DNA from: Blasia pusilla
Lineage: Eukaryota
Reading direction: 5' to 3'
DNA length: 64,000 bases
Assembly: GCA_050084515.1 (NCBI GenBank)
Contig: CM114271.1
Span: 46,066,001-46,130,000, forward strand
Position numbers and translations under genes: made by a program. How positions within the stretch are numbered: the first letter of the stretch is position 1; the number at the start of each line of letters is the position of its first letter. The notes beneath the pieces are model-generated. The model searched no databases. It was not told the DNA's origin and was given only the letters and a program-made list of their open reading frames with translations. This document shows, piece by piece, positions 27,904 through 63,152 of the stretch.

Positions 27904-28210
27904 AGAACAAGAATATTTGGGAGTGAGTGCTCAAGAAAGCTCATTTTCCACACAAGTTGTGATTGGGGATGATGGTTATAAGGTATAAACAACCTACCTT
28001 CACTACATTCAGTAGCCTTGATTAATTAATTGCCCAAAGCTGATGCACTTGTATGTAATGTTTATTGGGGATCCTAATCATGTAATCAACATATGTAGGA
28101 CAATAAGATGATTCCTATACTGTCAAGGCATCACATCACATGTAAACCGCCTTGTCATTCTTCTTCACTCTGTTGGAATATAAAAAAAGCAGTGGGGGAT
28201 GCCCCATTCA

Positions 28211-28216
<6 letters not shown>

Positions 28217-28302
<86 letters not shown>
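28217..28302. repeat. (CT)n microsatellite
   Basis: Perfect dinucleotide run. Confidence 0.98.
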
Positions 28303-28303
<1 letters not shown>

Positions 28304-31759: not shown

Positions 31760-33788
<2,029 letters not shown>

Positions 33789-37500: not shown

Positions 37501-38030
37501 GACAATCCATGCAAGATAGTTTAAGTCCATCGCTTGACCCAACTCATATCTTCGAGGTAGCTTTGACACATATGGGATATCCATAGAAAAACCAATTGCT
37601 TACTATTGGTCATCCATGGTAGGCTCCTGCAATCCTTATGTTTGGTTATCTCATACATGCATGGTCATTCCTATTGAAGGGATGGGATGCTAGAAAACTA
37701 ACAAATGCAAGTTATGTTGCCCTAAAATCCCCCATTTTACTGGCTATAACCAATGGTGGTAAATCATCATGACTTAACACTTGAGAATGTTGCCTCAAAT
37801 CCAAGATAAAATCCAATATTAAGTGAGTTGTTGTTTGAACTCCACCATAAGCTCGCTCCAATACCTAAGATGGTAGAAGGTTTATCCATCACAATCATAG
37901 ATGATGTGCACACTATTTGATAAACTAATCGCCTAGCTTATGGCATAATCAAACTCCTACCATGTTCAGCCTCACCAACTCCATTTGGTTGAGCCTTAAA
38001 GTCCACAAATGGCTCCTTGTGCACATTTTG
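34550..38030 (-). mobile_element. Highly decayed DNMT-RT-RNaseH-integrase pol of the same lineage (copy 2)
   Basis: From 37909 downward: AHHL*L*WINLLPS*VLERAY (DNMT motif VIII), V*DNQT*GLQEPTMDDQ**AIGF (IX), LGQAMDLNYLAWI (X). RT YIND ~37140. RNase H EGECLA...KLAKWVLLLQEF 36577-36374. Integrase YKWSLYF...RYVLFIMEHFSKRIELVA ~35455-35340. Confidence 0.8.
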
Positions 38031-40275: not shown

Positions 40276-40749
40276 CATCTTTCTAATGTATAACTGAAGT
40301 AAAATTGGCATACAAGGTCAAATTCAACTTTGAATCTACATATAATCATCAAGCCAACAATATGCACCCTCAACCATGAGGAAGGATGGATGTTAACCCT
40401 CAAGATCCTACCAAAACCTAAAAAGGATGAATATTCCATAAGCTCAATATGAGAGCCATCTCCTCATCTTTTATACCCTTGAGAAGAGCCAAAATAGGTC
40501 TTCCCCAAAAAATAGGCCTAAATGATAAAGTGCGCCCATGGGCTATTAGGTGATCGTCTATTTGGTTAACATGTCAGCTTGCCTGAAATAGAAAAATAAA
40601 CGGCTTATTAGAAACAACGATCCCAACACGACAAAATTATAGCAAATATCATCCAATTATTGAAGACAAAGCTATACTTCAACAACCCATTGACTCCCTA
40701 CAGCGTTGACTCAATAGAACTCTACCTATCGGACAACTATGATGTGATA
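40276..40749 (-). mobile_element. Diverged 5' repeat A plus PBS (family A); possibly the 5' end of copy 2
   Basis: Colinear with 30366-30853 (gaagagccaaaa...tcttccccaaaaaata; atagaactctacctat...gatgtgata). It adjoins catctttctaatgt (40276-40289), the same PBS as 30352-30365. Confidence 0.75.
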
Positions 40750-42236
40750 AGGACACTGAGGTACGCTTTCTGCATATTACATCTACGTCTTTGTAAGTTT
40801 GGAGTTTAGAACCTCAGATAGATTTTTCCCATCTTGTAAGTTTGCAAGTAGTAGTCTTGCAAATTCGTTATTCACTATAGGGATCCGACACAAAATAGGA
40901 ATAAGTTACAATAGAAGTCTGAAAAGTATTTCTTATAGAGACTAAAGTTATTGATGACAAAAATAACAAAGATTCAAAAAAAATCTAACGTCATTGTAGA
41001 CATTTGGTCTTATTGTTTATTTTGCAAGTTGATTGAGAATCTTAATTTGGGAAAGAGTGTGAAGAGTTATTGCAATTGTTGTGTATGGTTATGAAAGCTT
41101 GTCATTTTGGGCTATGTAGGACTAAATCCTTCTACCATTCCTAATAACATCCTCATGATAATTAGAGAAGTTGAGAGTTGGAGTAAAATTTATTGATCAT
41201 TCTACAAATATGCAAGGTGCAATAAATATGCAAGTGATAAATAATTGAGTCATATAAGCTCTTTCATAGTATGGTCAACTACTAAAACGTCCATAAGGGT
41301 CAATTGACCCAAATTTCTTACATTTGATCTGCATGGAATTGTAAACAACATCATGTAAGTCATGACATGGATGAAAGCCTTTCTTAATATTACTAGGCAT
41401 TTTGCCTCAATTGTATATCCCTAAGAGTTGTATGTCATAATTGAATATCCTAACATAGAAGGCAATATACAATTCACAAACTTGTTAGTACCGCTATTAT
41501 TGAGTACTTACAAAAAATATGTGAACCTTTACTCTGTGGCCATTTTAGGGTTATGGTTAAATTTGTTCGTGAAGCTAACTATAACTATGAAGAATTTAAC
41601 TACAACTACCTTCACGAACAAATTTTGATAGACAAACTTGCATAAAATACATATGTTGCCATTTGTTGCATTTCTTAACGGAAGAAAAAGCTCCAAATTG
41701 ACCGAGAGTCAATTTTGGGGAAAAAAATATTTGGCATTGTGAAACAGAAGTAATATCTATGATAATTGAAGGTGTTATAGTCTCCTAAATTAGAGCAAGA
41801 GTTTTCTCAGTAAATATGGGATAAACATACTTGATATTTTGTTCATCACTTTTCCAATATGGACTATAACCCCAACGCTTTGCTTTGCACGAATTGTGAA
41901 TGGTATTCCAAATTATTAACATATTGAATAATTCCTCCATATAGAAATTCATGGAGATAAGTCCATTTTTACGACTAGAGAGAAAATATGTTTTGTTTCA
42001 GTTCAAGATATACTTGACCATATTAAAATATTATAATAGAATTCATAGTGTGATGTATTGGGTTGTAGTTAGTGAACGAGGTAATCTACGTGTCTTTTAT
42101 ATATATATACCCTCCAACTGAATCCAAACCTACTTTTTTTTAAATATATGTGAACATCCTAGTAACTTATGGGATAGGAATGATCGTCTATGACTATAAA
42201 TTTAACAAGGATAGACGTAGACTATGGAAACTAATC

Positions 42237-42240
<4 letters not shown>

Positions 42241-42320
<80 letters not shown>
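42241..42320. repeat. (GA)n microsatellite
   Basis: Perfect dinucleotide run. Confidence 0.98.
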
Positions 42321-42323
<3 letters not shown>

Positions 42324-43818
42324 TGAGAGATTGTATTCATTAAGTATTGCTTGTTGTAGCCTTGCAACTATAGACCCTGCGCCCTGGTTGGAGAGAGCTT
42401 TTCTTATTGAAGAACTTCTCCTACATGTGTGTAGATGTCATGAGTGAGTATGATGTTGTGTGTTCTTGTGTGCATAATAATGACAATGATTCATGTTGTG
42501 TAGGGATATGTATGCGTTGGACAAAGAAGAATAGGGTGATTCATTCATCCAAGTGCACTATTGGAGTATAATTACTTACAAGTCATGCACACAAACCACT
42601 AATGCAAACCTCAAACGATTAGTCTAGATATGTTTACAATGGAAATCGCATGAAAAGGAGAAAGGAAGAATGATACAAGCGATAACGTTCGAGCAATTCA
42701 TGAGCGATGCATATCACTAGTCGGTGCTCTCGGTACAAAAGATGTGAAGAAGGAGGTAGATACAAAATAGGTCGAGAATGCAAATGGAAGAAAAAGACAC
42801 ATTACAAAGGCGAGGAGAGCTAGCTTTTGTAATTGCATGGAATCCTCAACAATGCAATCCACGATGCATATGATTGAAAAAGGTGTCTCCTCCTGATGAG
42901 ATCCGACGGTGGCGACATGACTACAACTTCTTGCTACTGAGGTGGACTTTCTACTAGAGCCCCATGCACAAGAATTGTATGTGTGGCATGCTTTGCCACC
43001 TCAACGAAAAACTTCGGGGAGTAGTTGAGGCCAAAAAAATGAAATCGGTAAACTCATGAAAGATTAGGGAATGTCCTAAAAAGTCCCCAAAACTACCCAA
43101 AACTACATATACCAAACCAAAGCTTTGGTATATGTTCATGTTTGGAAAAGTCCCACGTGAGAGATAGGAGAAAGTCGAAATGCACGTGTTCCACGGAAGG
43201 AATATAGGGTTAATGGGTCTTACTCCCCAAAAGAGGGAAGTTCGTTTGCTACATTTTGTTTATTCCCCGTCCGTAAGCCCTCTCCCGCCGTTGGGAGGTG
43301 ATCCCGTCCCCCGTACAGGCGGGGCCGTAAAAAAAGAGAGACACGAAAAGAAAGAGAAAGAAAATAATAAAAGCTGTGGGTCCCTCGGAGACGAGGAGTG
43401 AGGACCATCAGCACGTGATGTAGCGGCATCTGCCCCCTTTATGACAGAGCCTCGGAGACCGCATGTTGAATGCTGGCCATGGCCATGGCATGGCATGATG
43501 TTGTTTTAGATCCCTCCTGGAATCCATGACCAAGTGATCATTCGGGTCGGGCACCGGCAAAAGCGCCCCTGAAACCGCGGACCGCGACGATCCTCCCGTT
43601 GGTAGTTGGGCCACTGGTCAAGAATCCATCCACTTTCGGAGAGTGGATGGATGCGAAATATGTTGGCACGGAAGTGGTGCCACGCGAACAAGATTCGAGC
43701 CAGAGCTCTGCGGAGTTTGAATGCGTGCCGTAGGAGTTCAGAGCAGCAGTTCCACTTCTGGCGAGAGGAGGGGGGGTTTAGGGTTCATGACAGTGCTGGG
43801 AGGATTCAGGGAGCGGGT

Positions 43819-46800
43819 ATGCACAGAGCAACTGCAGCAGGAGGCGGAGGTCTCGGGGTTGCTCGGTGCTCGGAAGGATGGCTTCGGAATGCCGCGGGAG
43901 GAGGAGGTTTTGATGTTGCTTGCTGCTTGAGAAGATGGCCTCGGAATGCCGCAGGTTTTCTTCCATCGCAGGTATAATTGCTCTACAGGCGGAGCGATTT
44001 CTTTAGCTGCAATGAGATCCAAGTGTGAGTGTGAGTGGGTGAGGGTGGCGAACTGCGGTAGGATTTGAGGAATTGTTTGCTCCAGGTTAAGGCCGTGAAC
44101 TTTGTCGCCATGCGTCTGGGTGCGTTCGCGCTTGGTTTTTGTATGCGTCATGAGTTGTGGAGAAGTAGAATTTCTCGCGGAAGGTGGTGCATGGGTGGCA
44201 CGGAAATATGGGACGTGTCCGACCGGATCGGATTCGCTGCACTTCAACTTCATGAGAGTGGAACCCACTGGTGAACTGACGCGCGGTAGAATTGTTTCTG
44301 CGCTTTCTTGTGCCGTCGCTCGATAGTGGGAGGGAGAGGGGAAGCTTGCTGTTCGACTTTTTCAGCGTCAGGAGTATCTGAAGTATCTTCCGAAGCATTT
44401 ATGGCTTTTCTTTTCTGTATGGTAGTTCGTGGGGAGAAATCACGAATTGCGGCGTGCCAACTAGCGATCGATATGTGTTCGGTCACCGAATCTGACGGCG
44501 TCGAGGTTATTTCTTGCAGAATTGTAGGAGATTTACGACGTTGAAAGCATCGCGAGCAATCATCAGTCAGAATACCGGAGTATGCTGGGAGAGCCCGACT
44601 TCTCTAATTGGTTCGCTTAGCAATATTTTTACTGAGGTGTCGTTCCCTTGTCTTTATGCCATCGTCCTTGGTAGATTGCCGGTACTGTGAAGTTTGAGAA
44701 CGAACTTGAAGGGTACTTTTGTCGGCCTCCACTGAATGTAAAGTGTTTTCTTGCAAGTTTCTGTCATGTGTCGAGCTTCATGTGCCCCATAGATCTCTCA
44801 CATCGATAGTTGGTTGTAGGGTCAGGCCATAATTTCCCACGAATCAGCGAGGAGCAGAGAAGGTCGTTTCCTGAAAAAACGGGTTAATCTGAGTAGGTCT
44901 GCAATCAATCAGGTGGGCTCAAGAGCTCCCCAAATCATCCTCGTAATGGTCTTGGTGGTATCTCAACTTTGTCTCAGGGAGACTCATTTTTATCCTTTTG
45001 CTTCTAAGGCCAGTTGTCGAGCTGGCTCTGAGCGAGTTGTGTATTGAACTTGCATTGGTAACCGAATCTGCTTGCCATAAATCAGTTTCAATCTCTTACA
45101 AGTTGGATTTCCTTAGGACTTCTTGCCCTACATATGAATTCTCACCCACCCCCAGCGTTTGTTACAATTGCAATTGCCATGAAAATAAGACCGTCCATCC
45201 GAACACTAGGTCCCTTTGCTTACGGGAACCCTGTTTGTCTGTCTGTCTGTCAGTAGATTATGAACTTGCTCTTCAATCTCATAAGCATTTTACAATCCAG
45301 GGTGGAGAACATGACTCTCTTGTCACAGACGATCGGGCAGATGGGGAGATGGGGGTCATTGCTTCAGCTGATGCACAGGAAACACCTAGAATGGAATCCA
45401 TGCCCTTGAAAGCTCTGGTTCCAAAGTTGGAACCAGGTGACCCAGTGACAAGGTATGGAGGGATAGGGAAAGGGTTTATTATTTCATTAGATCAGGCAGG
45501 TTTCTTTTTAAGAGTGAAGTGGAAGATATTTTCAGATGCGCAGCTTGTGGAGAGTTTGGAAAATAGGCTCAATGCATCCATCGCAGTTTCGGCTATCACG
45601 GCTCTATACTTCATCAACACTAAGAAAATGTCGCAACGAAAATATTCATACAGGCTTGTTTGTCTACCCGTACAGTGCCGTGCTCACATGTTCCCTTCGG
45701 AAAATTGTGTTACTGCAGGGTTGGACAGAATATCACCGCTGGATATTTTATTGTGGCAGTTGGTGCACTGCTCTGGTTGGACTCTTCTCTATGGTGGATT
45801 GTTCAACAGCCCCTTGCCTCTTACTATCTCACTTTACCGTTTCTTTTATCTGCTGCAGTGACTGGCATTGTGGGCTACTTTTGTGTACCTGTACTCAAAA
45901 AATTAAAAGCAGATCAAGTGTTCCGTAGAGAGGGCCCAGCTGCACACTTACTCAAGTCTGGAACACCAACAATGGGAGGAATGTTTTTTGTACCAGTGGG
46001 TGTGGCAATTGCTTGGTTATTCACCCAGGTCGATTCTATTGAAGTCCATGGAGTGATTACAGTGACACTTGTCTATGCTGGGATAGGTTTACTCGATGAT
46101 GCCCTTACTCTCTGGCGCAGACACAACTATGGGCTCCCAGGATGGATCAAGCTCATGTTGCAGGTGACATTCCCTGAACGATAACTCATGAATCCAGATA
46201 TGCCATAATTACCTGTGTGTGCTTTTCATTTTCTTGTCCATGATCCTCACATGTGGATAGCGTACAGGTTGCTGCGGGTACTATATTTTCTCTTTGGCTC
46301 GAGACTGCCAACTTGCCATTGAGGTTGGTTAATTTCCTTGTAGGCATGCATGTCAGTATGGCCACAGTAAGGCTATGAAGAAAGCATTGACAAGAATCTC
46401 CTCAGACAAGTAGTAATCTGTCAATCAAGCAGAATGTGGTTGAAAGAACATGGATCGAGAAGATGATACCTACACAGCTAGACCCAATGTCATGTGAAGC
46501 ATTCATAATTAATGTCAAGGAGTCTGATAACACAACAAGGGCAGATAGATTACGAGTGCTTGAGAACAAATTAGTGTGAATGGTAACTTACTGGGTTGTG
46601 TTACTTCAAATGTGCAGAAGGAATATATTATCTCTACCCGCACCTTTCGAACCCCTTCAATTGGGCAGATGGTATCTACCATTGACAGCATTCTGTTGTG
46701 CAGCCATGAGCAATGGTGTTAATCTGACTGATGGGCTTGACGGACTTGCTGGAGGCACTGCTGCAGCTGCGTTCCTCAGCATGGCTGTTGCTGTGCTACC

Positions 46801-48295
46801 CAACTATCCGGGTATGAAAGGGATTCAAGTGCTTTCCATTGCAAGATGTTGCCTATCAAGTATTTGTCTACAGCTCCTTGTGGAGCTGTAGACAAATACT
46901 TGATGCTCACACTTCTTATTTTCTCTTGAGATGTAAATGTCACCATGATGCCCAATATTCTGCTGTGTTTCAATCTGACCAGAGGAAAACGTGAGTCCTT
47001 ACTTCGAAGAGATTGGATTCATTACTCCCTTTGACAACCCTCAAACTTGACTTCACTTACCAACTCCCACTAATTTAGATATTTCGCAACCTAAACTCTG
47101 GTACTTGTGGGTATTTCCAACTGCCACTCTCATTGCTTCTTCAGGTTCCTTGAAATGTATGAGTGAAAATCAATTTGAGCTAGTGGAGTGACACATGTTC
47201 TTGGTGGTAGATACTTGTCATGGACCAAGGTCTACAGGAGAAGGTACTGGTAGTTAACATCCAGTTTTCTAGCATTTTGTGGGGGAAGAGAAAATTGAGA
47301 TACAGATGGAAGTTGAATCAATTGTGGACTATTAACATTTTTTTAACTGTGCAGCGCTTGGTGTGTTTGGATCATCAATGGCTGGAGCGTGTTTCGGGTT
47401 CCTTGTGCACAACAGATACAAAGCAAAAGTATTCATGGGTGATACAGGATCCTTGGCCTTAGGCGGCGCACTAGCAGCTATGGCAGGATGCTCAGGCCTA
47501 TTTCTTCCGCTCTTAATTGCGTCAGGGTTGTTTGTTCTTGAAACTATTTCAGTAATGGGCCAGGTATACTCTCTCTCCATCTATTCTCTTTCTGTATCGG
47601 GCAAACTAATTGTACTCAGGGAAACTATTGTACTCACTAATTGGACCCCAACCCAGTCCAGCACAACCTTCCCGAACTTGAGATGATGGGAATGTGTAGT
47701 GAACCATCTGACAGCAATCTGCTTTCTCAGACTGCTTAGTAACAGCCCAAAAGGGAGTGAGCGTCAGTGGCCAGAGGTAGAGGCTCTGGGCCCCGGCGTT
47801 CTCATGAGCCTAAGAGTTTGACGCATAAATATGAACATGTCAACACTTTTGTGGAGTCTGATGACCATAAAATCAGTTGTACTCTTACCTTTATCCCGCT
47901 TGAGGAGCTAGCTCAAATTTTGCCCAAGAACTCGGAACAGCTGTGGGAGGCAGCGAACAGGTTTTCGAAAAATATTCAGATTTGAATCGCAAATCTCTGT
48001 TGTAGGCCCAAGGGAACCTCTTGTCATGATGTGGTTGAAATTCTTCCTTACTGGCAGGTACACTCTTGAAAATGTTTCCCCTCTTTGTGTATTGGTGCAG
48101 GTGTTCTATTTCAAGCTCACCAAAAGCTTGTATGGACAAGGTCGTCGTTGGCTTCGAATGGCACCTTTCCATCATCATCTGGAGTTCCTGGGCATGAAAG
48201 AACCTAGTATAACATCCGCAGCCTATGCGGTAGGGTCGGCCTTGGCTGTGCTGGCAGCGTACATCGGCCTCTCGTGCGCGAAAGTTCAATTTTAA
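43819..48295 (+). CDS. MraY: Phospho-N-acetylmuramoyl-pentapeptide transferase (plastid MraY / translocase I). Confident exons: 45719-46163, 46268-46323, 46618-46811, 47355-47563, 48101-48295. Tentative N-terminal exons: 43819(or 43651)-43971, 44520-44579, 44820-44912, 45301-45452
   Basis: MraY motifs [53 protein letters not shown] and MAPFHHHLE. All listed exons have GT-AG borders with compatible phases. The N-terminal exons rest on splice sites and phase only. Confidence 0.92.
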
Positions 48296-49319
48296 CATAC
48301 AAGGCAGTAACTGCGGAAGGATGATTATATGAAGTGTAAAAAGTGTCGAGGCCTTGGAGTCATGGAATCATCGAATCTACTTAGGCATTGATGGGCGCTA
48401 CTGGTGAAGCAGTCGTGACAGTAGACCTAGCAGTCAATCTCTCGAGCCATGGGATGGGCGAGAAATGGACGAGGTGCTATGAAGAAAAGTAACGAGAACT
48501 GATAGCGACCTAAAGAACGCGTGGGGATGTGCGCAAATCTGGGAGCTCAATTTGACTTGGTGTCCAATGGTTTCTCTTGTCCAAGGTGACAGAGGAATTA
48601 CATGGCCACGCCAGGTACGAATGTGTAGGGCCATGTGGTCGGTTCTCCCCACACCAGTGTGACGGTGATTCATGTCTTCCTGTAACCTAAGATTTTGGAG
48701 TTACTAAAGTAAACTACTTTCATATGTTCGCATTATTTGTGTTCCACTCCACGACCTACCACCTCTGATTGGGGTGGATCCATGAATTATTTGCCGCGAT
48801 CTCCTCAGATGATTCCTCTCGGATTCTCCTACAGCCAATGCAAACTTCGGAAGAGGCGGTGCGATTGGCTCAGCCGCAGCCCCTCTGTTACAAGGATGTA
48901 GATTCTCGTGGCAGTCTGCTGTCTCCAGGGAAAGCGTGAAGCGAAATGATTGCTTGTACCGCCCCTGCGAAGAAACAACGGGGCCCGCGGAAGCCCTCAC
49001 GAAGAACAGCAAACCACTCCGGAACACTGACTTCTTGTGGGCTTTTAAAAGGCGACCATCTGAAGTGGTCTCGCCCGGTGACCCACCTGAGCGATGTCGT
49101 GCGGATAAAGGCTAAAGGCTAGAAGAAGCTGACAAATCTATTATTTACTCGGAGTCTCGGATCTGTGGAGAGCTTATCGGTGCCTTCTGCCTGTTCGAGG
49201 TCTGCACATTTCGGTCCACTTGTCTGCGGACGGTTCCATAAGCTCAGCAGAGGCTCAGACTGAAGGTACGTACTAGGAACCATTAAGGGGCGGCTTCTTC
49301 GAGGTCTGCTGTACAGGAG

Positions 49320-49600
49320 TAGCCCTCAAAACACTGCGGCAAAGCAGTAGCGCTTAAAATCACCGCTGCAAGTTCTGGTCTTCAAAATCGCCGCGGCAAA
49401 GTTGCAGCCATCAAAATCGCTGCAGACGTAGTCCTCGAAATCACTGCTGCGAAGTTGCATACCTCAAATTCACTGCTGCGCAGTCGTAGACTTCAACATC
49501 ACCGCTGCATGTTTGTGTTCCTCGAAATCACTGCCGCGGAGTGGTAGCGGTTAAAACCACTCCTGGAAAGTAGCAGCGGTCAAATCACTGCAGCTGAGGA
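49320..49600. repeat. Degenerate ~26-30-bp tandem repeat (~10 units)
   Basis: Recurring aaatcac(t/c)gc(t/g)gc...agt.g.ag..ctc units. Confidence 0.8.
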
Positions 49601-49707
49601 CTTCAAGTTTGGGAACTTGTGTAGAGCGGAAATCGCCTCAGAGGTCAGCGCGACGCTGTAAACGAGCTTTGTAAGGATAGGAAGTCGGGAACGATCATGA
49701 CTCGGTG

Positions 49708-50295
49708 CCGGAGCGGTAGGCGTAGGAAGAAGCGGCCGAGACGCCACACAGCCATGGCTGAGAGAAGGAACTCGACTTCGAGAGCACTAGAAATTCTCTG
49801 AAACAATCAGAGAGGATTCGATAGCGTTGGACACCACCACAATCCGCGGCAGCCGCGGCAAGACTCAAATTAGGTTTGCAAAGATGGGAAGTCGCATCTT
49901 CCTATCTTTGCAAATCTAATTTGAGCTCGGAATCGGGCCTCAGGGCAGGAGCGGAGCGGTAGGCATAGGGAGAATCGGCCGAGCCGTTACAGCTATCGCA
50001 AAGAGAAGAAAAGAAACACGACTACGAGTGGAGCACAACTTCTCTGAGACGACCGTAGATGATTCGATGGCGTCTGAAACACCACCACAATCCGCCGCAA
50101 GATTCACATTCAGGTAGTAGGCAGTCGGGAAGAGAGAATCACGACTCACTGCCGCAGGGGTTGTTGAAAAGCGAGGGAGGGGAGAAACGGCCATGGCTGA
50201 GAGAAGAAACTCGACTCGGAGTGCACTAAAAACTCTCCGACCCAACCAGAGAGCATTCCATGGCGTCGCACACCGCCACGGTCCGCAGTCGCCGT
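49708..50295. repeat. Three diverged ~105-150-bp direct repeats at ~230-240-bp spacing
   Basis: cggagcggtaggc(g/a)tagg...gccatggctgagagaag...actcgact...gcac...attc(g/c)at(a/g)gcgt...cacc(a/g)ccac..tccgc at ~49708, ~49952 and ~50188 (the third is 5'-truncated). Confidence 0.75.
49864..49925. ncRNA. 28-bp stem / 6-nt loop hairpin (candidate miRNA or hairpin siRNA precursor)
   Basis: CTCAAATTAGGTTTGCAAAGATGGGAAG - TCGCAT - CTTCCTATCTTTGCAAATCTAATTTGAG. The two non-Watson-Crick pairs are G-U on the + strand. The hairpin is certain; its function is unproven. Confidence 0.35.
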
Positions 50296-52339
50296 GCGAG
50301 CTTCCCAAGCTCACACGCCTCTATTCTCCTCAGAGGCCCTCCAACTCCATAGCTCCGCATCTCACGCGTTTCCCGGCGGTCCAGCGCCGCACTCCGAGCT
50401 CTGTTTGCCTGGAATGTGGGGCGGCGACGACTGTCCCGTCGCAGATACGCCGTGTCGCGCGGAAGGGGACAGGGGCGCCCGCGCACTTTCCGCTGTTCCG
50501 GAACACCGTCGATCGCAGATGCTTATCATCTGACGTCTCTCGTTTCCCGGCGATTGTTTTTGGCTTTCTTCCGTCTTTTACGGGCCCTCTCCGTCATAGA
50601 AGGCAGTGAAAGAGGTCTATATCAGTGTCCGGGGAGAACCGGGGTTACGTGTTCAGTTGGCCATAAGAATTTGAGAATTTCCGATTCGGTTCGTCACTTA
50701 TCGGCAAAAAACGGAGGGTTTAGGGACGGTGTCCTTTGAATTCGTATCTGTTCAGCCGGCTGGGATGACGAAAACTTCAAAAATTGTCGCTCGGTTTTGT
50801 AGAGACCGGTAATGTACTGGTTGTCACGAAAAAACTCCCCACACCCTGGTCTATATGGTAATAGAGGAGCCGTTTTCAAATGTTGCCAAGGGAAAATTTA
50901 TGGAGAATTTATCGGGTATCTTTGAATCTTGCATGGGTAGGGCGACGCGTGGCATGGGTAGGGGGCATTAAATAACGGGGTGTTCAGGATTAGGTCGTTT
51001 GAATCATGCATGAGTAGGGCAACAGTCATCACCCTAAGTAATGGGGCGGTCAGGGTTAGGGACCATGGAGTGGACCATGCATCGCACGGTCTCCTCATGG
51101 GTTTTAGCTAGTAGGTCTTAAAAGGGGAGTTTGTAAGGTTTTTGATTTCAAATTACAATAAGTAGGATTCATTTTAATTATCTATGTAATTGAAAAAGGA
51201 TGAGGTTACACAAAACCTCTCAAAGGTTTCTCATGGTGTTGACACATGCCACTTTAAGAGATGAAGTTCAACTAAGAGGATTAAATTAAATGAAGAAGGG
51301 AAATGAATGTCGGAGCTTTTTAAAATTTGAAATCACACGTGTATAGACTAGGTAGTAGATTTTAACATAGTCTTTCTTCAATCACCCATTGTCTATACGG
51401 TTAGAATGTCGTTTGTTGGTTTACTTTCATCCTAAGGCTTGTGCTCTCAAATCTTAAGAACTTTTTTTCCCATTCGCTTTCTTCTTAGTTGAATTTTATT
51501 TGGTTTCACTTGTTGGGATGATTATGTTTATATATGTGTTACCAAATTTCCGATATTTACATTAAAATGGAATATTAAGAAAGTCATTTCCAGCATTCGA
51601 TATCTTTTACATCTGAATGCAATCTAAATAAATCAAACTTATCTTCAAAGAATGCCTCGGTGAAGATGTTGACCAAATTTTTTATATCTCGTCATATATA
51701 TAAGGTCCATGTCATTTGCTAAGACCCTCTCTCAAACGATCCGATATTGTACCTAAATGAGTTTTTTCCTCGTATGAAACACTTGATTCTTTTGTTAATG
51801 AGTGTTATTAATATGATTTGCATGTATGAAAGCTAACTTTAAACATTGGTTGCCTATATCTACAAGATAGTTTTTTAACCCAACTTATTCACATTTAGTC
51901 ATGGTTGATTCTTCTGAATCAACTTCTGTTTTCGGCAAGGAAATAGTTGGTTATTACTTTAGTGCCCAACTTACTAAAACACTTCCAAATCTGAATACAT
52001 ACATGAAAGTAGATCTTTTATCAAAGGTGCTCCTTGCCCAATCCAGAGCAATATATTATTGTAGCCATAAAGATTCAGTTGATGAATGACAAAATTTGAA
52101 TGGACTTGTAAACTTCTTATACCTTAAGATCTACCTCATTAGATCCAGATGAGGTTTTTGGGGCCGATTGCATAAACCGACTCATTAATCCAATAAAAAA
52201 GAAGAAGATATAGACCTGCGATAGTCAATTAGATCAAGATTCCAACCACAACACAATATATGTTGGGATCTCATTATCTTTATCTACTTTAAACTTCAAA
52301 CTTTGGTCCAATTGCATGGGAATTGACATGCGAAGACAT

Positions 52340-55300
52340 ATAAGTAGGTCTTTGTGTGTAGAGGTATCTATATGTGAGGCATAAAAAGACGGTAAGATGA
52401 GTCTCACTTCGAACAATGATCCACTTGAGGAAGTATTTCCTCATATCTTACCAATGTCAACAACGCAAGATTACGAGATTTCCTTGTCCAACGACATGTT
52501 GTTGTTGGGGGACGTAGGGCCTAGATCGGATGGGTACCAGTCATTTATTCATTGTAAGTTTTCTATGTTAGGGTTGGTCAAGTGCTAAATAGGGTGGGGG
52601 GGGGGGGGGGGGGGGAGGAATTTGGCGTATGTGGGGGCTTGGGAGACCCTAGGTTTGAATTCTTTAGGGATATGGTGGAGATCTTATGACATCCGCAAGA
52701 GCACTAGACTAATTCTCCACACACATTCTAGAGAATGTCCTAATTTTGGGTGAATCTTAGTTTAGGGTGATGATGAAAGTACATCATGTTCGTGCATGAT
52801 TGGACCAATAGTATTGTTGGATGCAATGAGTGTGGGATTGCGCCCGCATTTTTGCTCCTCTAGTGGACAAACTTGATGCCACATAAGGTGTTCAGGAGAG
52901 TCTATGCAATAGTGGAGCAAAACTCTTAAATGTTTGTGAATTCGATTTTGGATCATGGATGTCGATCATAAGCAATGAAGTAAGATGGTCAACCCCCCTC
53001 GAGTGTGATCAATATAGTTGGTATGCGACAAGCAACACTCTCCACACTGGTGAATTTCCCTACCTCTAATGCTTACAAGGAGGGTGGTTATGGTTTGATT
53101 TGGGATGATAAAGTGCAATGGATGGTGGAGCCCAATGTTGATGAGTGAGAGAGCATGATGAAAATTTTCCATAAGAGTGACAATAATGTTGTTATTGAGA
53201 AAAGAGTCTCGACCCCATATCCTCGGTTAAGCTGTGGATCGAAATTGCAATATATATATTATCACTCTAGGAGTGGCTAGCAACTTCAAATGCAATTGAG
53301 GCATGTTACCTCTCAGGAACTTGTGAGCCCTATGCCTAACAAGATGGAAAAGACAATAGCTAGGGGCAAGGCAAGAGGAGATCCATGGATCAAAGGTAAT
53401 CAAGAGAGACACCCTTGAACTTCTTGGGATATGATGTAGGTACGCTGAGACATGAGAATTATGACACTTGGTACCATGCAAGATTTTAATCACTTAAGTA
53501 TATCGAGAGGAGAGACATCTAAGTTGGTTGCACGAGAAGAGTAGAGTACTAGTGATAATGAAGGGGTTGCATAATAACTATTAACCCTATGTTGGAGAAA
53601 ACTATTGCATTCTTGATGGAAATATGGGAGCCAAAGTTTGGGCCTAAGTTGACATAAGGAGAGCGACACTGGGTACATTGGTCCATCAGGAGTCAACCAA
53701 GGATATGTTGAAGCAACCAAGGATCCACATTGAGTTGTCAAGTGACATATTGATCTTCCGATAGTACATGAAATGAGATGGACATGGCTATGATTTAGAG
53801 CAAGAGTAAGAGTTTAGTTGAGGTAGACGTAGTGGAGATGTTGTACGGAGAGTATACCTAGGCTATTGTCATGCCCATAACGAAGGATGTGCTATACAAT
53901 TGATGTATAGGTAGATGTGTGGAGACTATCAACCTATCAATTGAAAGACAAAATCTAACTTGTATACGATGTCCATGCTAGAGGAGGTCTTTGATGCCAT
54001 TGGGTATGTAAGGGTCTTTAGATCATTAGATCTATAGTTGGATACCTTCAGGTGCCTACAAGGGTGGAGGATAGACGGAAGATGATATTTGGTCACAGGA
54101 AGGATTGATTATACCAATGGCGATTCTTATCATTTTGATTAAATAACACCTCGGTAGAGTTTCAGAGAGTCATGGTGGAAATCTTACAAGATTTCGATTT
54201 TTCCAAATGTTATATTGATATTATTGTAGACTTTATTACCATGGGTGAGAAGCATGAGCGACACCTTGCGGAGATGTTCTAACAATTATACTTACATAAG
54301 CTAAAGCGATATCTAAGCAATTGCAATTTCTTCTATGCCTAGATTGAGTACTTGGTTCATACAATAAAATAATGTGAACTTGATATTCAACATACAAAGC
54401 TAAGGGCTATCTCACGTATTCTGCGCCCTACAAATGTGAGTCAAGTTTGTGCATTCATGGGATTAGAAAATTTCTATTGATGATATGTTAGGGTGAATTC
54501 AACACGATTGTGAAGCTTTTGACCTTATTGTAAAATATGGACCATAAATGGTAGTGGGAGGATGATCATAATAGAGCATTTCAATTCCTTAAGGATTGAT
54601 GAATGTCAAAATACACACGGCTTGGAGTATATTGGAACTTAGAGCGGTGCTCATCAAACATGAGGATAGAGAGTTTGTATTGGATTGCACTAGCCGCTCA
54701 AAGAATCTTGTAGAGGAAAAGTACAACTCGTATGAGGGAGAACTCTTGGAGGAAATATGAGCGGTTGTGCATTTCAAGAGTTACTTTTTTGTTAACCCCT
54801 TTACCCTCATCATTTATCATCAACCATTGAAATGGTCGATGAAGTCTGACAAGCTTAGAGGGAAGCTTCAAAGGTGGGCATTATTGTTACATGAGTATGA
54901 TTTCCATGTGGTACATCAACCTAGAAGACTCAATCAAGAGGTGGATGGTTTTAGTTGTAACTCATGCCAGTGTTAGCTATTGGAGCTCATTGTATGGGCA
55001 TGGTAGGAATATGAGGAGATGGTTCTTGGTTGGCATACATCTACCTATTTAGTTTTATTGGCCATGGAGAACCATAAGACCTTGATTGTAATGACAAGGT
55101 CGAATGGAGAGTTCGAGGTTGGTGAGGAGGTGACATGTGGCCTAGATACCCGAGAGGATGGATTAGTCTTAGAGTACCTACATATTGGTAGCATATATGG
55201 CATGCACAATGGGTTCCAAAGAGCGGAATTGGATCCTCTAGCAAGCTAGATGGTTTAAGTGGGAGGGGGTTTATGTTTTGTGAGTTTGGGAGGATTGTAG

Positions 55301-55600
55301 AGTACGAGTGGTGCCTTATCCATTATTTAGAGCTTGATTGGTTTAGTATACCTACAAGGAATTGGGGCATTTTGGAGTGAGGTGGACATATAGGTTGCTC
55401 AAAGTTCATTATTAATGAATTACTTTTGTTTAATGCTCTCACTATTGATCATGGATTTATGCCACCGAAGGAGTTTGGATTTTATGGCCTTTATCATTGA
55501 TGGAGTAGCATGATCAATATGTACTAATAATTGTCGAGGACTTCTCGATGTGGATTGAGTTGGTTGCATTTCCCAACAAGGCGTGTGAGTGAGTAGCATA
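52340..55600 (+). mobile_element. Decayed DNMT-RT-RNaseH-integrase pol of the same lineage (copy 3)
   Basis: RYLYV (motif II) ~52365, FLC*GWSS (IV) ~52560, HILENV (VI) ~52725, L*WTNLMPH (VIII) ~52860, GLIWDDKVQWMVEPNVDE (IX) ~53095, ILG*AVDRNC (X) ~53220. RT CGDYQPIN and YIDI 53920-54225. RNase H 54700-54960. Integrase start ~55350-55580. Confidence 0.85.
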
Positions 55601-58600
55601 TGCACTCTTGGACTAAGTGTCAAGTCAATATGACACAATAGTAAAAGTGCATTGAAAAATCATTTAATGTTCATAATGAGGGTAAAAATTTGCTATAGTA
55701 CATGAGAGTCTGAACAAATGATGTAGGATTGATGCTCAATATTAGCACTTGATGAGCGTAGGAGTACGTTAGCCTTTCCTCTTCCAAACCCCATTTATAT
55801 TGATATATTTGAGGAAATGCATATGGGAAGAAAGATGAGGATTGATAGAATGGTTCTTACTGACGTATCAATTAGATCATTCGTCACTTGAAACACTTGG
55901 TCTCGTGCATGGAAAAGGGTATATACATCTTTCATATGCTTGATGGTGAGGTATTCCCATCTTGTGTGTGTTGACACGTGACATCCAAACCATGTATTAA
56001 GACATGAATCATGAAAGGATAGTCCAAGAAGTCTAGAATGCACACCATGAAAAATAGGGATGCATACTTACAAAAGAGGAAGTTTTGACTCATTCGGCCT
56101 TGATCACAAACAATGCAAGGAATCAATATTTTCTTCATTTTTGATAAAAATCATCCCACTATTCCAAAAATCCCTTGGCCAACCACTTAAGTGAGTGTTG
56201 CATGTGATTCTTCATTTGTTGCATCAGAGTTGAAGGGAATTTTGATTTACAAGGAAAAAACCTAAGTTCTTGTGATGGGTCATGTCAAATAAAGGTTGAT
56301 GGAGAAAAGATAAAGAAGTTTGGAGATCAAAAAAATTGGCGAGAGCAATGGGTCAAACGTTTCATACTCATCTGAAATTTGAAATCGAACATAAGATATA
56401 GTATCACAAAAGTAAGAATGTGGATTATTAAGATTACTTGGAAATAAAATATCCAAGACACAAAGCTCGACTTTTTGAATCGCACAGATAAGAAATATTT
56501 CGTAAGTAAGATTGAGAAGTTTATTTCAATTTGTGAGTAACAAAATCCTCAAAGCCAATATTCCCACTTAAGGATAAAAAATAAACACAAGTTTGTTGGA
56601 ATAACATTGTAATACGATCATTAGAAAATCTTTGATGCCTAAAGATATATAACCATGCAAGATCTTACAAATAAAATACTATCCTTTTACTAGTATGAAA
56701 AGAAGAGTCACAATATACAACCCCTAGTTAAAGGTATCAAAACTAGTGTGAAGATGTTATAATGGGGACGTGGAAGAGCACAACAAGGTATAGATCAATC
56801 TCCTCCATTATATAAAAGGTTGATATATGTTGCAATTTTAGATTTTGATATAGATAGAATAAGGAGAGTCGTCTTCTAATATTGTGGAAGGTGCCTATCT
56901 ATGGGAGCAGACACTTAGAAGAATAGAAGAAGAAGTGATTTCTTGTCCATGAGAAACCTACTTGGCTTATGGAACCTTCCACATACGTGATCTTGACATC
57001 GCATCCAACAAACACCTTCACATTTAGATTTCAAACATTTATATTTGGAGTTCCCACATATATGAAAGGCACAAGGTGCAATCTCTCGAACATGGACCAT
57101 CCACGTTCTATATTGCTGTATGGTCGAGACCGCCCTCCATTGTCCAAGGGGAGAGTTGATCAAGGGACCTGTCATAACTTTTTAGGATAGATTGGAGAGA
57201 TCTGGTAGAGTGACTTTGCGAGTAGAGGAGGACAAGCTCAAGAGGTCTAGGATGACCTGTTGAGGTCATGGGAAACTTGAGAGAGCAAGTTTTCCCTTTG
57301 TTTCGGCTTCATTTGGAACCATATAGACAAACTTACTATTTTGGGTAAGTTTCTATGTTTGGTATAGTTAACTTTCCACTTTTGGAAGTGGCCCTTGACC
57401 CACTACAACAGGTCAAGAGCCAAGGAGGTGACCTGCGAGTGTAGGTTACGGAGGAGAGAGCTTGGGAGAGGGAAGGGGGTACACCTCAAGGAGAGAGAGC
57501 TTGAGAGCTCATTCTCTCTTTGTTGAACTTCTTGGCATGAGGCGGAAGAGCTATGGTCTTGCTTGCCTTGTGAGTGTAATCCAAGCCTCTCATTAGGAGA
57601 GTGGTTTTGGGTTGACATTGAGAGAGACATGTGAGAGTGCACACATTTGAGAGTAATGGTGTTGAGAGAAATTGGATCTACTTGATTTACAAAGAGAGAA
57701 TGAGTGAGTGAGAGAGCTTCATGGGGGAGCTCGATGGCCACTCGCTGGTTTTTCAGGTTGGGGATCGTATACCGCGTTCAGCGGTTCATGGGAGTGCTAA
57801 CCGGAGCAAGAGACGCTTAATTTTGATGTTTCTTTTGCCGATTTTTCGTGTGGAAGAGTGGAGCACGGAAGCGCTGCCCAAATTTTTATAGGGATTGAGT
57901 ATGGGGGTGGGTTGCCCCATGCCGGTGCTCTCAAGAGCACCGTGTAGCTTGCTAATTTGTATTTTCACAAGTTTTAGATTTTTGTTAGAAGGAATCAGCG
58001 TGGAAGCGCTGTCAAATTTTGCATAGGAGAAAGAGACGTTGGGTTGCACAACAGTCCCCCTCAGTTTTTGGTGGAAAAGAAAATGGAAAAAGGGTCATAG
58101 ATCGGAAAGTGGTGTACGCTGCTGAAGAAACAATGCACAATTTGGAGATTGGAGCACGGAGTTATGATCATTTTTGTTGGGCTGCCATATCCACCGTTCC
58201 AAGGTGTGAGTGAAATTTCGAAATTTTTGGGTAGAAATTCTCTCTTGAGAGGTAGAAAAAAATTCAATTTACTTGGTGGATAGTTCAATTGAATTCAGCT
58301 ATTTGGAGGTAGGGTGAGTAGATCCCATTTTAGGGGGGTGTTGACCCTCAATCTTAGGAGGGATTTGTGGTAAGGTATTCAATTTGCAGACTTGTCAAGA
58401 GGGGGTTGTCAAGTAAGGAAAGATAGTGGAGATCCAATTTTCCCGGGGGTTCTTCTAAAATTAAATTAAATTATGGCGGGGGACAACAACTGTCCTACCA
58501 CGTCCTAGCTGACTATCTCGGAGACGCGCAAACCGGTTGTGCACTTGCTACCGCCGTTGTATGTTCTGTGGTCCGTTGACGCTTCAGGGCCGCTATCCGG

Positions 58601-61590
58601 TTGTCAGACCTCCTAATGTCGAAACAATATTGAGCCGTCGTGCAGCCGTGTGCAGCTCTGTCTGACCCTATGTTACTACCGCCCGTAGAGCCGGGCATTT
58701 GAATCTCTGTCTCAGACCGCCGCGACTGCCTGTGTTCGCAGCCGGCCGTTTGCATTTTTGGATTGATGGGGTGGTAGTGTTTTTTCCGCTTTGTTATGCC
58801 GTGATTTGTAGCCGTTCGAGGAAAATGGAGTATCGTGCCGTGACGCCCCTAGCCACAATGGGCCGTCGATTGCCACGCCGAGCCACTTGTGGCTGCACCA
58901 CACCGTCTTGATCGCCGAGCCGCACCATCACTGAAGAGCAGAGTGTGTATTGCTGTTGAGGAGGGTATGCGCTGAGAGCCGCACCCTATTATCGAGTGCC
59001 GTGCTGTTTGTAACCATTCGAGTCGCGAGTGGCGCACCGTACCGCTCGACCCGCACCGCACATCAAGGAGATTTGAGCATCGTCAGTACCAAAGGAGTAC
59101 GATTTGCTGCTTGGAGGAGTTGTCTTCACGACCGAGTTGGGGTCAAGGTTTTTTAGTTGCTGAGGCGTGACATCGACACTTATTGTTATGTTACCCATTC
59201 TGGTCTTTTGCCCTGCACGTGTTAGGGATTTTCGGGTATTGGGCAGTTATTTGGGATATTGGGTTTCGTGCTGATGTTGAGAGCATCATTGATGTATTGG
59301 TTAGGGGATATAGACCTGTGTTGGACATCGAGAATTGAGGGTGTGTCCTATCAATAAGATGATAGGACAGTAGACGATTTTCCGCACCACCCCGCTTGTT
59401 GCCGCACAATACACGTCTCAGTGAGAGAGTGTAGATTGAGTGCCGCATGTTGGATTGAGTGATTGAATGATTACTCGCGAGATTGGGAGTGATCGTATGA
59501 GAGGGGCACAAGAGTCATCATGGCGTTCTTTTGGGACTTTGAGAGGCGAGGTGGTGGATCTTAGAGTAGCTCTAGAGGGTTTACCCGGAGTGGTGCGAGG
59601 TTTTGAGAGTCTCCATGTGAGAAACCACCTCGATCTCCAGCTGTGTCGTCTTCAGACAAGGGGGAGAGTGTAGAGGAGTGTGCTAGTGATCCACCACACA
59701 CATTGAGTGGTCCTACCAGTTGGGTGTACGAGATGGATGACCGGGATAGAAGACCGCGTAGGTTTTCGAGTGCTATAGGCACTATAGATTTAGACCATTT
59801 CATTGCGGATTTTAGGAGTTGGTGTGACTCACAACAGGCTAGGAACTCAAGAGAGTTCAACCCATTTACAACATGGAATGGAATGTTCTAACATTTAGAG
59901 GGGGCATCCATGGACGATTACCATGAGTTCTCGTAGAGATATGCTCATGAGATTGAGGCCTGGAGACTCTACTATGACCCACACTATGTGTCATGGACTG
60001 ATCCGTTTCCAGATGAGGAGAAGGAGTAAGGAGAGGGTTCCTCCACCAGTGATGTTGTAGGAGGGATGACTCGCACTAGAGCAATTACATCGTCCAGTCG
60101 AGTTCGTCCTAGTTTCAACCCCCTTGGTTGAGTTCTTCACTGAGTTGAGGGCGAGTTACGAGGGGGTACGGACGGAGAGGTTACGGAGCATCCATGACTT
60201 CCAGAGGCGTCCGGGTGAGAGTTTGCGTGAGGCCTACACTCGCTTGCGCCGGTTGATTAACGTCACTCAGGGGGTGACAGAGGCTCAAGCTCTCCAGTCA
60301 TGGTACACGATGCTGGACAAGACCCTACGAACACGGGAACGGGAAGGGGTGCTTCTTATGAACACCTCCCCTACGTTGAGAGATGTTTTTAGGACTGCCG
60401 AGAACATTGAGTGCAACATGGCGGAGGGGACCGTAGCCACCATGGGTTGTGGGCAAGAGCAGTCACAATTGTGTGCACCACCAATGCAACAACATGGATT
60501 CCGAGATAGGTCTGTGGCACCACGAGCCCAGGGAGGATACCAGGAGGCCGTGCCATAGAGACCTGTGCCTTCATATGTAGCTCAACAACAGCCGCCTACT
60601 ATTACTTGTTGGTCATGTTGTGGAGCCCATCATCAACGCGATTGCATTCGTCAGGGTCATGGACGCGTGCCTCAGCATGGAGGAGGAGATGGTGTTGCAC
60701 TAGGAGGTTATTAGTGTGACTATTGTCAGAGGTACGATCATAAATGCGCCAAGTGTTTCAGCTTGTACCCTGAGTTACGTTCGGACTGAGGGCTAGAGAG
60801 GGCACCAAAGCAAATTTCCAGTCGGGGTGGGCCTAGAGGTCGTGCACCAGGTGGTCTCGTTGGGGGATGAGGAGTTGGATTTGCCCGAGGGGATGGTGGA
60901 GTTGCCCATGGAGGAGGTAGAGTCCCACCACCTAGACCCGTCAAGGGAGATGCCGGGCGTGAGGTTGGGATGGCTGCTAAGATCTTGCAGCTACAACAAC
61001 AGATTGCCCCTATGGCATTGAGGTTACCCGATGCCGGATCTGTGGCATCGACATCTTATGGAGCCGTTAGACGTATGGAGGATCTTGGTTGGATGTGCGA
61101 GGTTGCCCAGATGGAGGCCACCGCAATTGTTACCGTGGAGCAATCGTAGAGTTGGATCTAGAGCGAGGGGAAGCCATAAAACAAACCAGGCTTCCTCAAT
61201 CCTTCACGTTGTCCGAGGCAATGAGGACCCCATCGATGGGTCCTGATCAGAGTTCTCAGAGACTTGGTGATGTGTTGGTGTGCAGGCACATAGGGCGATG
61301 GAAGAAGCAAGTGCGATGACTCCTATTCCTGATGCTCATGAGGAACATGTGTCGAGCACGTTGTTGGGGGCGGCCATCGTTGTGTCCCGCGCTCTTTTAT
61401 TTTTTGCTTCCGATGTTATGACGTTGGGAGGTACGCCCGCCGAGGTTTTCCGGCCGGCCGCTATGCTGTGTGAGCATGGAGTTGGAGTTCCTACATCATG
61501 TTCAGAGGTGATTGCAGAGGAGGTGATGGAGCTTGGAGCTTATGCTCAAGTCGTCCACGTCAGATTCATGGCAGGCTACGGCTAGTAGGA

Positions 61591-62199
61591 TGGCAAAGCC
61601 CGAAGCCCAAAGCATTACGGAGACTTGTAGACCAAATGGCTCTACGGGTCAGCCACTTTATCCAAGAGGGCCCTGCCAATAGTACGGGACTCTGGTGGTA
61701 TAACCCGATCGGCAACATAAGTAGTAAGTAGGTGACTCAGCCCAGGACATGAAAAAAAAGCCTTCTTTGGTAAAGCCAAAGCAATTTTCCTCGAGTTTTC
61801 AAGGCCCCTTAACAACAGTCAAAACCTCACCCAAAGATAACGTTGAAAAAAATCCGTCGACCGTAGCCGACACAACTAAAACCCTATGAATTGAAATTCC
61901 ATTCAAAATTTAGATTTTTCGTTCTGTTCGAGAGTTTCGAGTTTCTTCAAAATTTCGCGTGCGGCTCTTGACGGCCCCGTATTCCACTGCCCACCTACTT
62001 CTCTTATGCTTGCAATAGGGCCAAATGGATAAGCCTTATCCATTATTGATAATATTAATATAAAAATATTATTATTATTTCCTGATATCTCCGTCACATT
62101 TGCGATAATTTGTCACCGTTGCGCATTTCGGTCCCCGGGAACTAGCCTCTCTGGCCGTTCAGTTTCTTTTTCTATGAAGTCAAGGTCGAAGGAGCTCTA
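61591..62199. mobile_element. ~610-bp nested insertion, possibly an unrelated solo LTR, with 5-bp TSD TAGGA
   Basis: Composition differs from the flanking gag/pol. TAGGA at 61586-61590 and 62200-62204. Ends are TG...TA rather than TG...CA. Internal AT-rich TATA-like block. Confidence 0.5.
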
Positions 62200-63152
62200 T
62201 AGGATCCCCAGGTACGGTTTGTAGAGCTGTATCCTAGATCTTGAGCCCCATTGACATAACTATGGGTGACCTAACAATCATAGCATAAATATCTACGATG
62301 GGATAAGCAAAGATGCCCGCTACACCCGCGATAGAGCGTGCCATGGCTTCGCTTGGTGTTGTGTTGCTGGAAAACGGGGGAGAGGTCTTCCACTTGGTGA
62401 GTCCACGAGGTAGGGGTTTTAGTCCGCAACGCGTCTTGTTGGATTAAGGAACGCAACCCCTGATGTTGGGGAAAGCGGTTTCAGAGGATTGGGCTTGACG
62501 AGAGCCAATATGGAGCGTTGTCCATCTTGGATACATACATCCTTGGATGGAGCGAGTACCACACAATATATCACATGAGAGGAGGTCATGGTGAGGATTC
62601 GGCTAGGACATGCTACAGATGAGTCAGTGGTACAAGCCAAGGCGATAGTGACTCATGCAGAGTCCTACGACGTCTTTGTTGGTGGAGCAGTGTTTGTACC
62701 CGATGGGGTTTTCATTGGATTACTGGGATGAGGCAGCGTCCTATAGACCAGTATGGCAGTCCGGTGATGGACGTCTTTGTTCATTACCAGTTTGATTCAC
62801 ATGTGCTGTGATCGAGCAACGGCCAGGAGAGCTGACGACCTTAGCAGCATTTAGCAGCGCCATCACTTGGCCTAGTGATTCGATTGAGGGACATGTTCAT
62901 GCAGAGGATACTCCCATTCTTGACATTTCTATGGAGAGGAGTGTCATGGTCGCTACATCATTCCATGGAGGAGAGGTGCCGCTTTGGGGTCCGATTGAGG
63001 AGCTTCAACGCTTAGCCACTGAGCATGTGCAGACCGCGTGGAGCGAGACGTTTGCACGAGAGCGTGACGGGTCAGAGGAACCCGAGGTAGCCGAGAGTGC
63101 TATGATGACGCCCTTGGATACCACACCCATTATGTGGTGCGTTCCAGAGGAG

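Follow-up and report, generated by a model that had tools for sequence, protein, structure and literature searches.

The 64,000-nt stretch of the Blasia pusilla genome analysed here (contig CM114271.1 of assembly GCA_050084515.1, positions 46,066,001 to 46,130,000 of the forward strand; hereafter the window) holds three retrotransposon 5' ends, at 30853-30352, 40749-40276 and 57170-57704. In each, a repeat of ~460-520 bp, here called A, runs immediately into a primer-binding site (PBS) of 14-16 nt. By self-comparison of the window and direct reading of the sequence, with five copies of the second repeat (B) compared, no same-strand B occurs within 400 nt of the three A repeats on either side; the sole B matches nearby, upstream of 30853, lie on the opposite strand and belong to an older solo repeat. 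This bears out an earlier model-made reading of the letters (the sequence-only reading), whose coordinates for the three ends were right. All three are ends of elements from an abundant Ty3/Gypsy family, which is present in thousands of copies and arranged as A-PBS-internal-PPT-B-nn-A-B (PPT, polypurine tract; nn, a two-base spacer), a structural assignment about which we have hardly any doubt. The features are collected in Table 1.

Table 1. Repeats, priming sites and coding remnants in the window (RT, reverse transcriptase; LTR, long terminal repeat; DNMT, C5 DNA methyltransferase)
Feature	Position	Strand	Remarks
Family-1 5' repeat A1 (U3-R-U5 part of the inferred LTR)	30366..30853	-	starts with TG; left end of element
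Putative self-primer site in family-1 A1	30534..30547	-	~31 nt past a TATA-like box; complementary to PBS
Family-1 PBS, putative self-priming type	30352..30365	-	TGG not at start
Family-1 decayed internal region	24915..29537	-	gag-side and pre-DNMT pieces only; foreign inserts (tblastn)
PPT of family-1 element	24671..24681	-	immediately 5' of B1
B1 of family-1 element	24531..24670	-	2 nt + TG ... CA
Spacer of internal CA-nn-TG junction	24529..24530	-	2 nt, here AC
A2 of family-1 element	24042..24528	-
B2 of family-1 element	23902..24041	-	fused to end of A2; right end of element (CA)
Older solo A-B repeat	23714..31244	+	pieces 23714-23901 and 30854-31244, split by the family-1 element
Family-2 solo A-B	32436..33070	-	exact 4-bp duplication; B at end
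Third-subfamily old 5' A and PBS	40276..40749	-	A 40749-40290, PBS 40289-40276; primer site partly deleted
Decayed DNMT-RT-RNase H-integrase	34991..37909	-	3' end missing
Family-2 5' repeat A1	57170..57688	+
Putative family-2 self-primer site	57508..57523	+
Family-2 PBS	57689..57704	+
Decayed gag region, linker and C5 DNA methyltransferase of the 57170 element	59499..64000	+

The layout can be followed from end to end in the family-1 element at 30853-23902 (-), which reads A1-PBS-internal-PPT-B1-AC-A2-B2, has an A1 and A2 that are 88.5% identical, and is bounded by a 4-bp duplication with one mismatch. As tblastn gave no DNMT, RT, RNase H or integrase match in its internal region, this is a non-autonomous copy. 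The 40749 copy is old, its nearest relatives being only 66-71% identical; the decayed DNMT-RT-RNase H-integrase remnant in Table 1 probably belongs to it, and no B-A-B end was seen, the integrase stopping near 34991. The 57170 element runs past the window, with RT, integrase and a B-A-B end lying beyond, and a complete copy bounded by an exact 4-bp duplication is nested in it; the Retrotrans_gag match of the 57170 element is weak (E 0.0055, under the Pfam cut-off). Two solo repeats had also been claimed to end in B and to have 4-bp flanking duplications, and both do, with one mismatch in the duplication of 23714-31244. The other solo repeat sits within an integrase/PHD tail with B and partial A of a family-2-like copy (31755-33652, +), which stops at a (TG)n run; copies are frequently nested in one another.

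The coding capacity of the family places it among the Ty3/Gypsy elements. Its internal region codes for a gag-like part (a weak match), a C5 cytosine methyltransferase (PF00145), RT, RNase H, an H2C2/rve integrase and a PHD finger. The Pol order RT-RNase H-integrase with a DDE (rve) core, the TG...CA ends with a target duplication (4 bp here, 4-5 bp in the group), and the placing of a PBS after the 5' repeat and a PPT before the 3' repeat are all those of Ty3/Gypsy, and the best solved relative is Ty3-G Gag-Pol (E 2.6e-58). The methyltransferase lies upstream of RT. A set of 20 RT-anchored copies was made up of the 19 best of 149 non-self hits and one copy with a long frame; of these 20, 19 show a DNMT match. 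A PHD finger replaces the chromodomain that follows integrase in Tcn1. No Pfam match to an aspartic protease was found in the scanned stretches; a Closterium relative has PF13650/PF13975. Likewise, a scan of 19 of the open stretches of at least 70 aa listed for one copy (L173/L174), which left out shorter stretches and some antisense ones, yielded no tyrosine recombinase; with target duplications present as well, membership of DIRS was rejected. To our knowledge, the DIRS order (PAT/Ngaro) has no integrase-type target duplication. Identical direct LTRs at both ends were found in none of the 20 RT-anchored copies, whose ends are A on one side and B-nn-A-B, B, or a truncated end plus B on the other.

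The 390-Mb genome carries 16,170 RT candidates. One named relative is in Calypogeia, with an RT 72% identical over 74% of the query, and further relatives occur in Marchantia, Sphagnum, Closterium, Klebsormidium and Mesostigma-coded records, an RT of Klebsormidium nitens matching at 39% identity; this spread by itself points to a host that is probably a bryophyte. Several "hypothetical" proteins of Marchantia polymorpha (P0002, P0004-P0012, P0021 and P0029) carry the same methyltransferase, some of them fused to RT/RNase H, and thus the lineage is present in this model liverwort.

Searches of the whole genome with exact patterns gave 831 hits for the family-2 A/PBS junction and 954 for the A/B joint, against 0 for reversed control patterns, so these numbers are not due to chance. 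Among 60 A-anchored loci (the top BLAST hits, including the three from the window) we counted 31 A-PBS ends, 18 PPT-B-A(-B) ends, 8 solo A-B and 3 unresolved; an adjacent B was seen at 0/31 A-PBS ends, and a B between A and PBS at 0/31. The 60 B-anchored loci, some overlapping the earlier ones, comprise 34 in B-A-B, 10 PPT-B-flank, 12 A-B, one lone B and three odd forms, namely B-A(1-41)-B (L124), B-gc-B (L142) and flank-B-gt-A-PBS (L152). The last is the one exception to the layout (1/60): at L152:1501-2489 the left end keeps B-gt-A-PBS and then joins an inverted copy, and it is the only uncut left end seen. Elements of the RT-anchored set terminate in B-A-B (13 elements), in PPT-B (5) or in B fused to a truncated interior (2); 13 could be followed as far as the 5' A, and none of these has B upstream (0/13). 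Of the 13 elements with both ends available, 11 show a 4-bp duplication, which is exact in 6 and has one mismatch in 5; in these 11 it lies right next to the A1 TG and the B2 CA, also in copies with 96-99% A1/A2 identity, and no ordinary B-A...B-A element occurs among the 20. On contig C1 up to 38 Mb, scanned with exact patterns whose detection is partial, the 54 B-nn-A junctions listed were followed by the A/B joint in 12 cases and by A/PBS in none; among 100 A/B joints listed, A/PBS came next in 0. Third-subfamily loci are too diverged for a full tally, and the readable ones show the same forms.

As such, the asymmetry is a property of the lineage in both families, as the sequence-only reading had proposed, and copies with B beside A/PBS are not frequent, L152 being the single counter-example. 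What that reading overlooked is a common third form, A-internal-PPT-B, found in 5/20 RT-anchored elements. Nine family-1 PPT-B ends were followed further: a 5' A was found in five, with a duplication that is exact in one, has one mismatch in two and two transitions in two. A difference between families in the share of A-internal-B (9/30 vs 1/30 B-anchored loci) was dropped, as it was not upheld in the RT-anchored set. Terminal branches of A-internal-B and B-A-B copies (0.039 vs 0.034) are uninformative on age, and the RT tree is star-like (1/17 branches starred), so label tests on it say nothing. In one element (E167, L167/L168) the right end reads partial A-B-A-B, i.e. two tandem A/B joints, with the target duplication intact.

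How is such an element primed? The sequence-only reading had recognised a PBS next to A, which stands; the site appears to be of the self-priming type instead of the tRNA type. It lacks a TGG start, pairs with a site inside A, and no tRNA gene lies in the window, for which reasons tRNA priming was rejected, in a comparison that covered the window but not the tRNAs of the genome. The complementary site, of 14-16 nt, lies 164-185 nt upstream of the PBS and ~30 nt past a TATA-like box. Pairing reaches at least 12/14 nt in 21 of 24 family-1 sites, the primer not being found in 2, and at least 14/16 nt in 19/19 family-2 sites; both sets include a few aberrant right ends. Primer and PBS sequences differ between the two families, yet are complementary within each, and we predict that the PBS is used for self-priming as in Tf1. 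Stranded RNA reads from three runs labelled with the same species (885-1255 reads each, mostly below 90% identity) fall mostly sense on A and the leader, and some extend from B into A, with 32-70 loose-end reads per run spanning the B/A junction. In four aberrant right ends (L010, L065, L030, L140) a primer-site copy comes next after A, the fold-backs of L010 and L065 joining exactly at the primer's 3' end; possibly these are fossils of self-priming.

The junction between B1 and A2 reads CA, two bases, TG. By retroviral integrase chemistry, cleaving each strand of such a site behind its CA would yield two standard processed ends with 2-nt overhangs. The spacer itself varies: in the first 100 of 380 junctions listed it is AC in 44, GT in 20, GC in 15, AT in 11 and another pair in 10. 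It carries no lineage signal, and variant rates are similar in both families; its two positions are associated (p=0.0005), and GT exceeds a background decay of 21%. With GC the junction becomes a perfect 10-bp palindrome, while AC and GT each alter the base right after a CA. One possibility is that this hypervariable spacer is a scar left when integrase or methyltransferase acts to shield the second site.

In the A/B joint at the right end, A runs to the last base ahead of the PBS, and B starts with the first base past the PPT. These are the very ends expected from standard reverse transcription if the LTR were B-nn-A. When the first 100 of the 954 matches were classified, with a pattern blind to deletions, 68 were exact, 27 had +A, 2 +AC, 1 +ACAA, 1 +G and 1 +AG. 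All 32 inserts are PBS starts and/or the last PPT base: +A, +AC and +ACAA are nested PBS starts, and +G is the last base of the PPT. Joints read in local copies comprise 27 exact, 17 +A, 1 +AC, 1 long PBS remnant and 5 other in family 2 (n=51), and 31 exact, 2 +A, 1 +G, 1 PPT remnant, 1 PBS remnant, 3 +T and 7 other in family 1 (n=46); longer remnants of PBS or PPT are found at L134, L020 and L014. The +A state shows no lineage signal: placed on a 32-copy tree, it is scattered, with 9 changes over 29 labelled rows vs 9.05 when shuffled. Polymorphic columns of B2 served as the control, and 10/13 of these do follow lineage (p at most 0.006). Furthermore, B2 is nearer to its own B1 than to others, differing by 4.7% vs 8.2% in family 2 (n=32) and 10.8% vs 12.8% in family 1 (n=30), with p=0.0001. 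Taken together, the scatter of +A, the lineage-following B2 columns and the likeness of B2 to B1 argue that B2 is a fresh copy of B1, and that the joint is remade in each cycle. Some truncated right ends, their duplications intact, are fused to B, starting from its first base in E169, L124 and L142, and from about its base 15 in E187; together with the uncut left end of L152, they are consistent with failed cycles.

We consider it probable that these are self-primed Ty3/Gypsy elements whose true LTR is B-nn-A, and which integrate as a circular permutation of a two-LTR cDNA, not the usual route of ordinary retroviruses and LTR elements; the priming, joining and cleavage that this entails we infer from the layout, ends, duplications, pairing potential and joint anatomy described above. 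The RNA would begin in A1, ~30 nt past the TATA-like box, and its first bases would pair with the PBS and prime the minus strand as in Tf1. Ordinary strand transfers and PPT priming would then produce a linear (B-nn-A)-PBS-internal-PPT-(B-nn-A), a product of which L152 may show the left end. Its primer-defined right end would be joined to its PPT-defined left end, either before integration or by host repair just afterwards, so that the A/B joint is made anew in every cycle. The DDE integrase would subsequently cut after CA, on both strands, at the internal CA-nn-TG site on the PBS side, giving two retrovirus-like ends with 2-nt overhangs, a 4-bp duplication, and the integrated form A-PBS-internal-PPT-B-nn-A-B. 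One-LTR circles or a second cut could give A-internal-B and solo A-B. Why the PBS-side site should be preferred is a matter of speculation; it might be double-stranded first, the other copy being a displaced single strand until the plus strand has crossed ~9 kb. More tentatively, with what we see as an even chance, integrase attachment in a streptophyte-wide Gypsy lineage has shifted away from the ends of the cDNA, to a palindrome within the LTR, so that joining the ends and opening a circle junction is its normal way to integrate, and the abandoned two-LTR circle route has become the main one.

Several observations weigh against this mechanism. All evidence comes from decayed genomic copies; circles, free cDNA ends and cleavage all went unobserved. 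By symmetry, the mirror form A-B-A-PBS-internal-B is predicted as well, and it is found in 0/100 listed joints, which means that an extra, unproven asymmetry rule is needed for choosing one of two identical sites. A target duplication is absent from 2/13 RT-anchored elements, and the variability of the spacer without lineage signal is not predicted by simple templated copying. The tree on which the joint states were scored is weakly resolved (6/29 branches starred). As for priming, the primer was located using each family's own PBS complement, no compensatory primer/PBS changes were found within a family, minimum-energy folds show the pairing in only 15/22 and 10/19 leaders, and in the three RNA runs no RNA start falls at the predicted primer place.

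A closed circle is not strictly needed to account for the joint. Reverse transcriptases are able to jump from end to end, and the finished plus strand could leave the right end for the minus strand's 3' end, copying B (and on into A), after which both ends would be trimmed by integrase at CA-nn-TG, with the LTR logic unchanged. That the joint is exact on its B side in nearly all cases and varies more on its A side, and that truncated right ends meet an exact B start, is what such a jump would leave. On the other hand, PPT remnants at the joint (L014, L005; +G, +AG) resemble two-sided end-joining, as do some joints in which the beginning of B is missing (L020, E187), although a jump onto a mis-cut end could also yield all of these. 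We regard such a template jump as unlikely. Less probable again is a templated regeneration as in PAT and Ngaro, in which the RNA enters B2, the B1/A2 junction templates both termini, and the A/B joint is inherited. PAT, Ngaro and VIPER are likewise defined by an A1-B1-A2-B2 layout in the published descriptions cited here (PMC4157794, PMC7192593), and RNA reads do cross the B/A junction; however, no tyrosine recombinase turned up in the 19 open stretches of one copy, an integrase and 4-bp duplications are present, the conserved PBS and PPT define the joint exactly, and joint variants ignore lineage. Finally, an origin after insertion, by 5' B deletion, nesting or unequal recombination of ordinary LTR elements in this heavily nested and decayed region, is highly improbable and refuted for the main form, where the duplication adjoins the A1 TG and B2 CA in 11/13 elements (96-99% A1/A2 copies among them) and no ordinary B-A...B-A occurs among the 20 RT-anchored copies, whereas B1 x B2 and A1 x A2 recombination is possible for A-internal-B and solo A-B. 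The sequence-only reading derived solo A-B from A1 x A2 recombination; geometrically this may be so, and a double cut of the cDNA would yield an identical product.

Some further observations were made along the way. A further old DNMT-RT-RNase H-integrase copy, ~66% identical to family 2, lies at 52639-55649 (+), and a possible decayed LINE-type RT fragment, recognised by eye only, at ~25400-26730 (-) within the family-1 element. The family-2 leader contains motifs at 58045-58075 and 58395-58420, one of which resembles the reverse complement of the PPT-B start, the other being common to families 1 and 2 (30070-30095 in family 1). Host gene pieces were noticed at 10232-10936 (-) and 45624-46184 (+), and at L032:9212-9841 (-), with matches to a glutathione S-transferase C-terminal domain, an MraY signature and choline/ethanolamine kinase.

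If joining and internal cleavage of the cDNA indeed take place, a retroviral-type integrase would routinely use the internal junction of joined cDNA, and the long-debated two-LTR circle route would be revived. It would also provide a testable origin for split direct repeats, and the same logic might explain the repeats of tyrosine-recombinase elements. In practical terms, a family present here in thousands of copies, with relatives in Marchantia, would be overlooked or wrongly dated by tools that search for paired LTRs. Moreover, methyltransferase-carrying Gypsy elements, known from an alga, are hereby extended to land-plant genomes.

The nearest described counterpart is KnitGypsy-Dnmt3 of Klebsormidium nitens, a Gypsy element with a C5 methyltransferase in Pol and A-coding-B-A-B repeats, arranged "the same as a DIRS" according to the Fig. 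4 legend (PMC5890265). The passages and legend that describe it give no PBS, PPT, target duplication, PHD finger or mechanism (PMC5890265). The Blasia family is likened to it by domains and layout, not by a tree; it resides in a land-plant-type genome in thousands of copies, and what is new with respect to that record is a PBS of apparent self-priming rather than tRNA type, the anatomy of the A/B joint and its missing lineage signal. "Streptophyte Gypsy-DNMT3" elements (10.64898/2026.05.21.726589) and DNMT3-bearing retrotransposons (PMC12344493) are mentioned elsewhere, in the relevant passages without structure. We found no literature with this layout in land plants, or with this mechanism, in a search outside of which lay subscription journals, Repbase and bioRxiv supplements. 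With Tf1/sushi and plant Tcn1 the family shares a PBS right after U5 that is complementary to the inferred 5' end of its own RNA, an arrangement described for Tf1/Tj1 (PMC4600332) and predicted in plant Tcn1 and TAR (PMC6317226), as far as the relevant passages go. Those elements have two ordinary LTRs, and Tcn1 a chromodomain, whereas the Blasia family has split repeats, a PHD finger and a methyltransferase. With PAT, Ngaro and VIPER it shares split direct repeats A1-B1-A2-B2 and an internal junction that copies the joined termini, and passages in the same sources propose a circular intermediate for the related DIRS-1 (PMC4157794, PMC7192593); it differs in its DDE integrase, TG...CA ends, 4-bp duplications, PBS and PPT, with no tyrosine recombinase found.

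The opening of abutted ends by a DDE enzyme is familiar from the transposon circles of the IS3 family. Among retroviruses, HIV-1 integrase is able to cleave a 2-LTR junction that is palindromic, and integration can be seeded by 2-LTR circles, as two reports describe (PMC1905944, PMC4372172), so that there too a retroviral-type DDE enzyme opens an abutted CA-spacer-TG in continuous DNA. In HIV-1, however, this is a side route acting at the true end-to-end joint, whereas in the Blasia family the attachment site lies inside the LTR and the route is apparently the main one, the real end-to-end joint being retained in the integrated copy.

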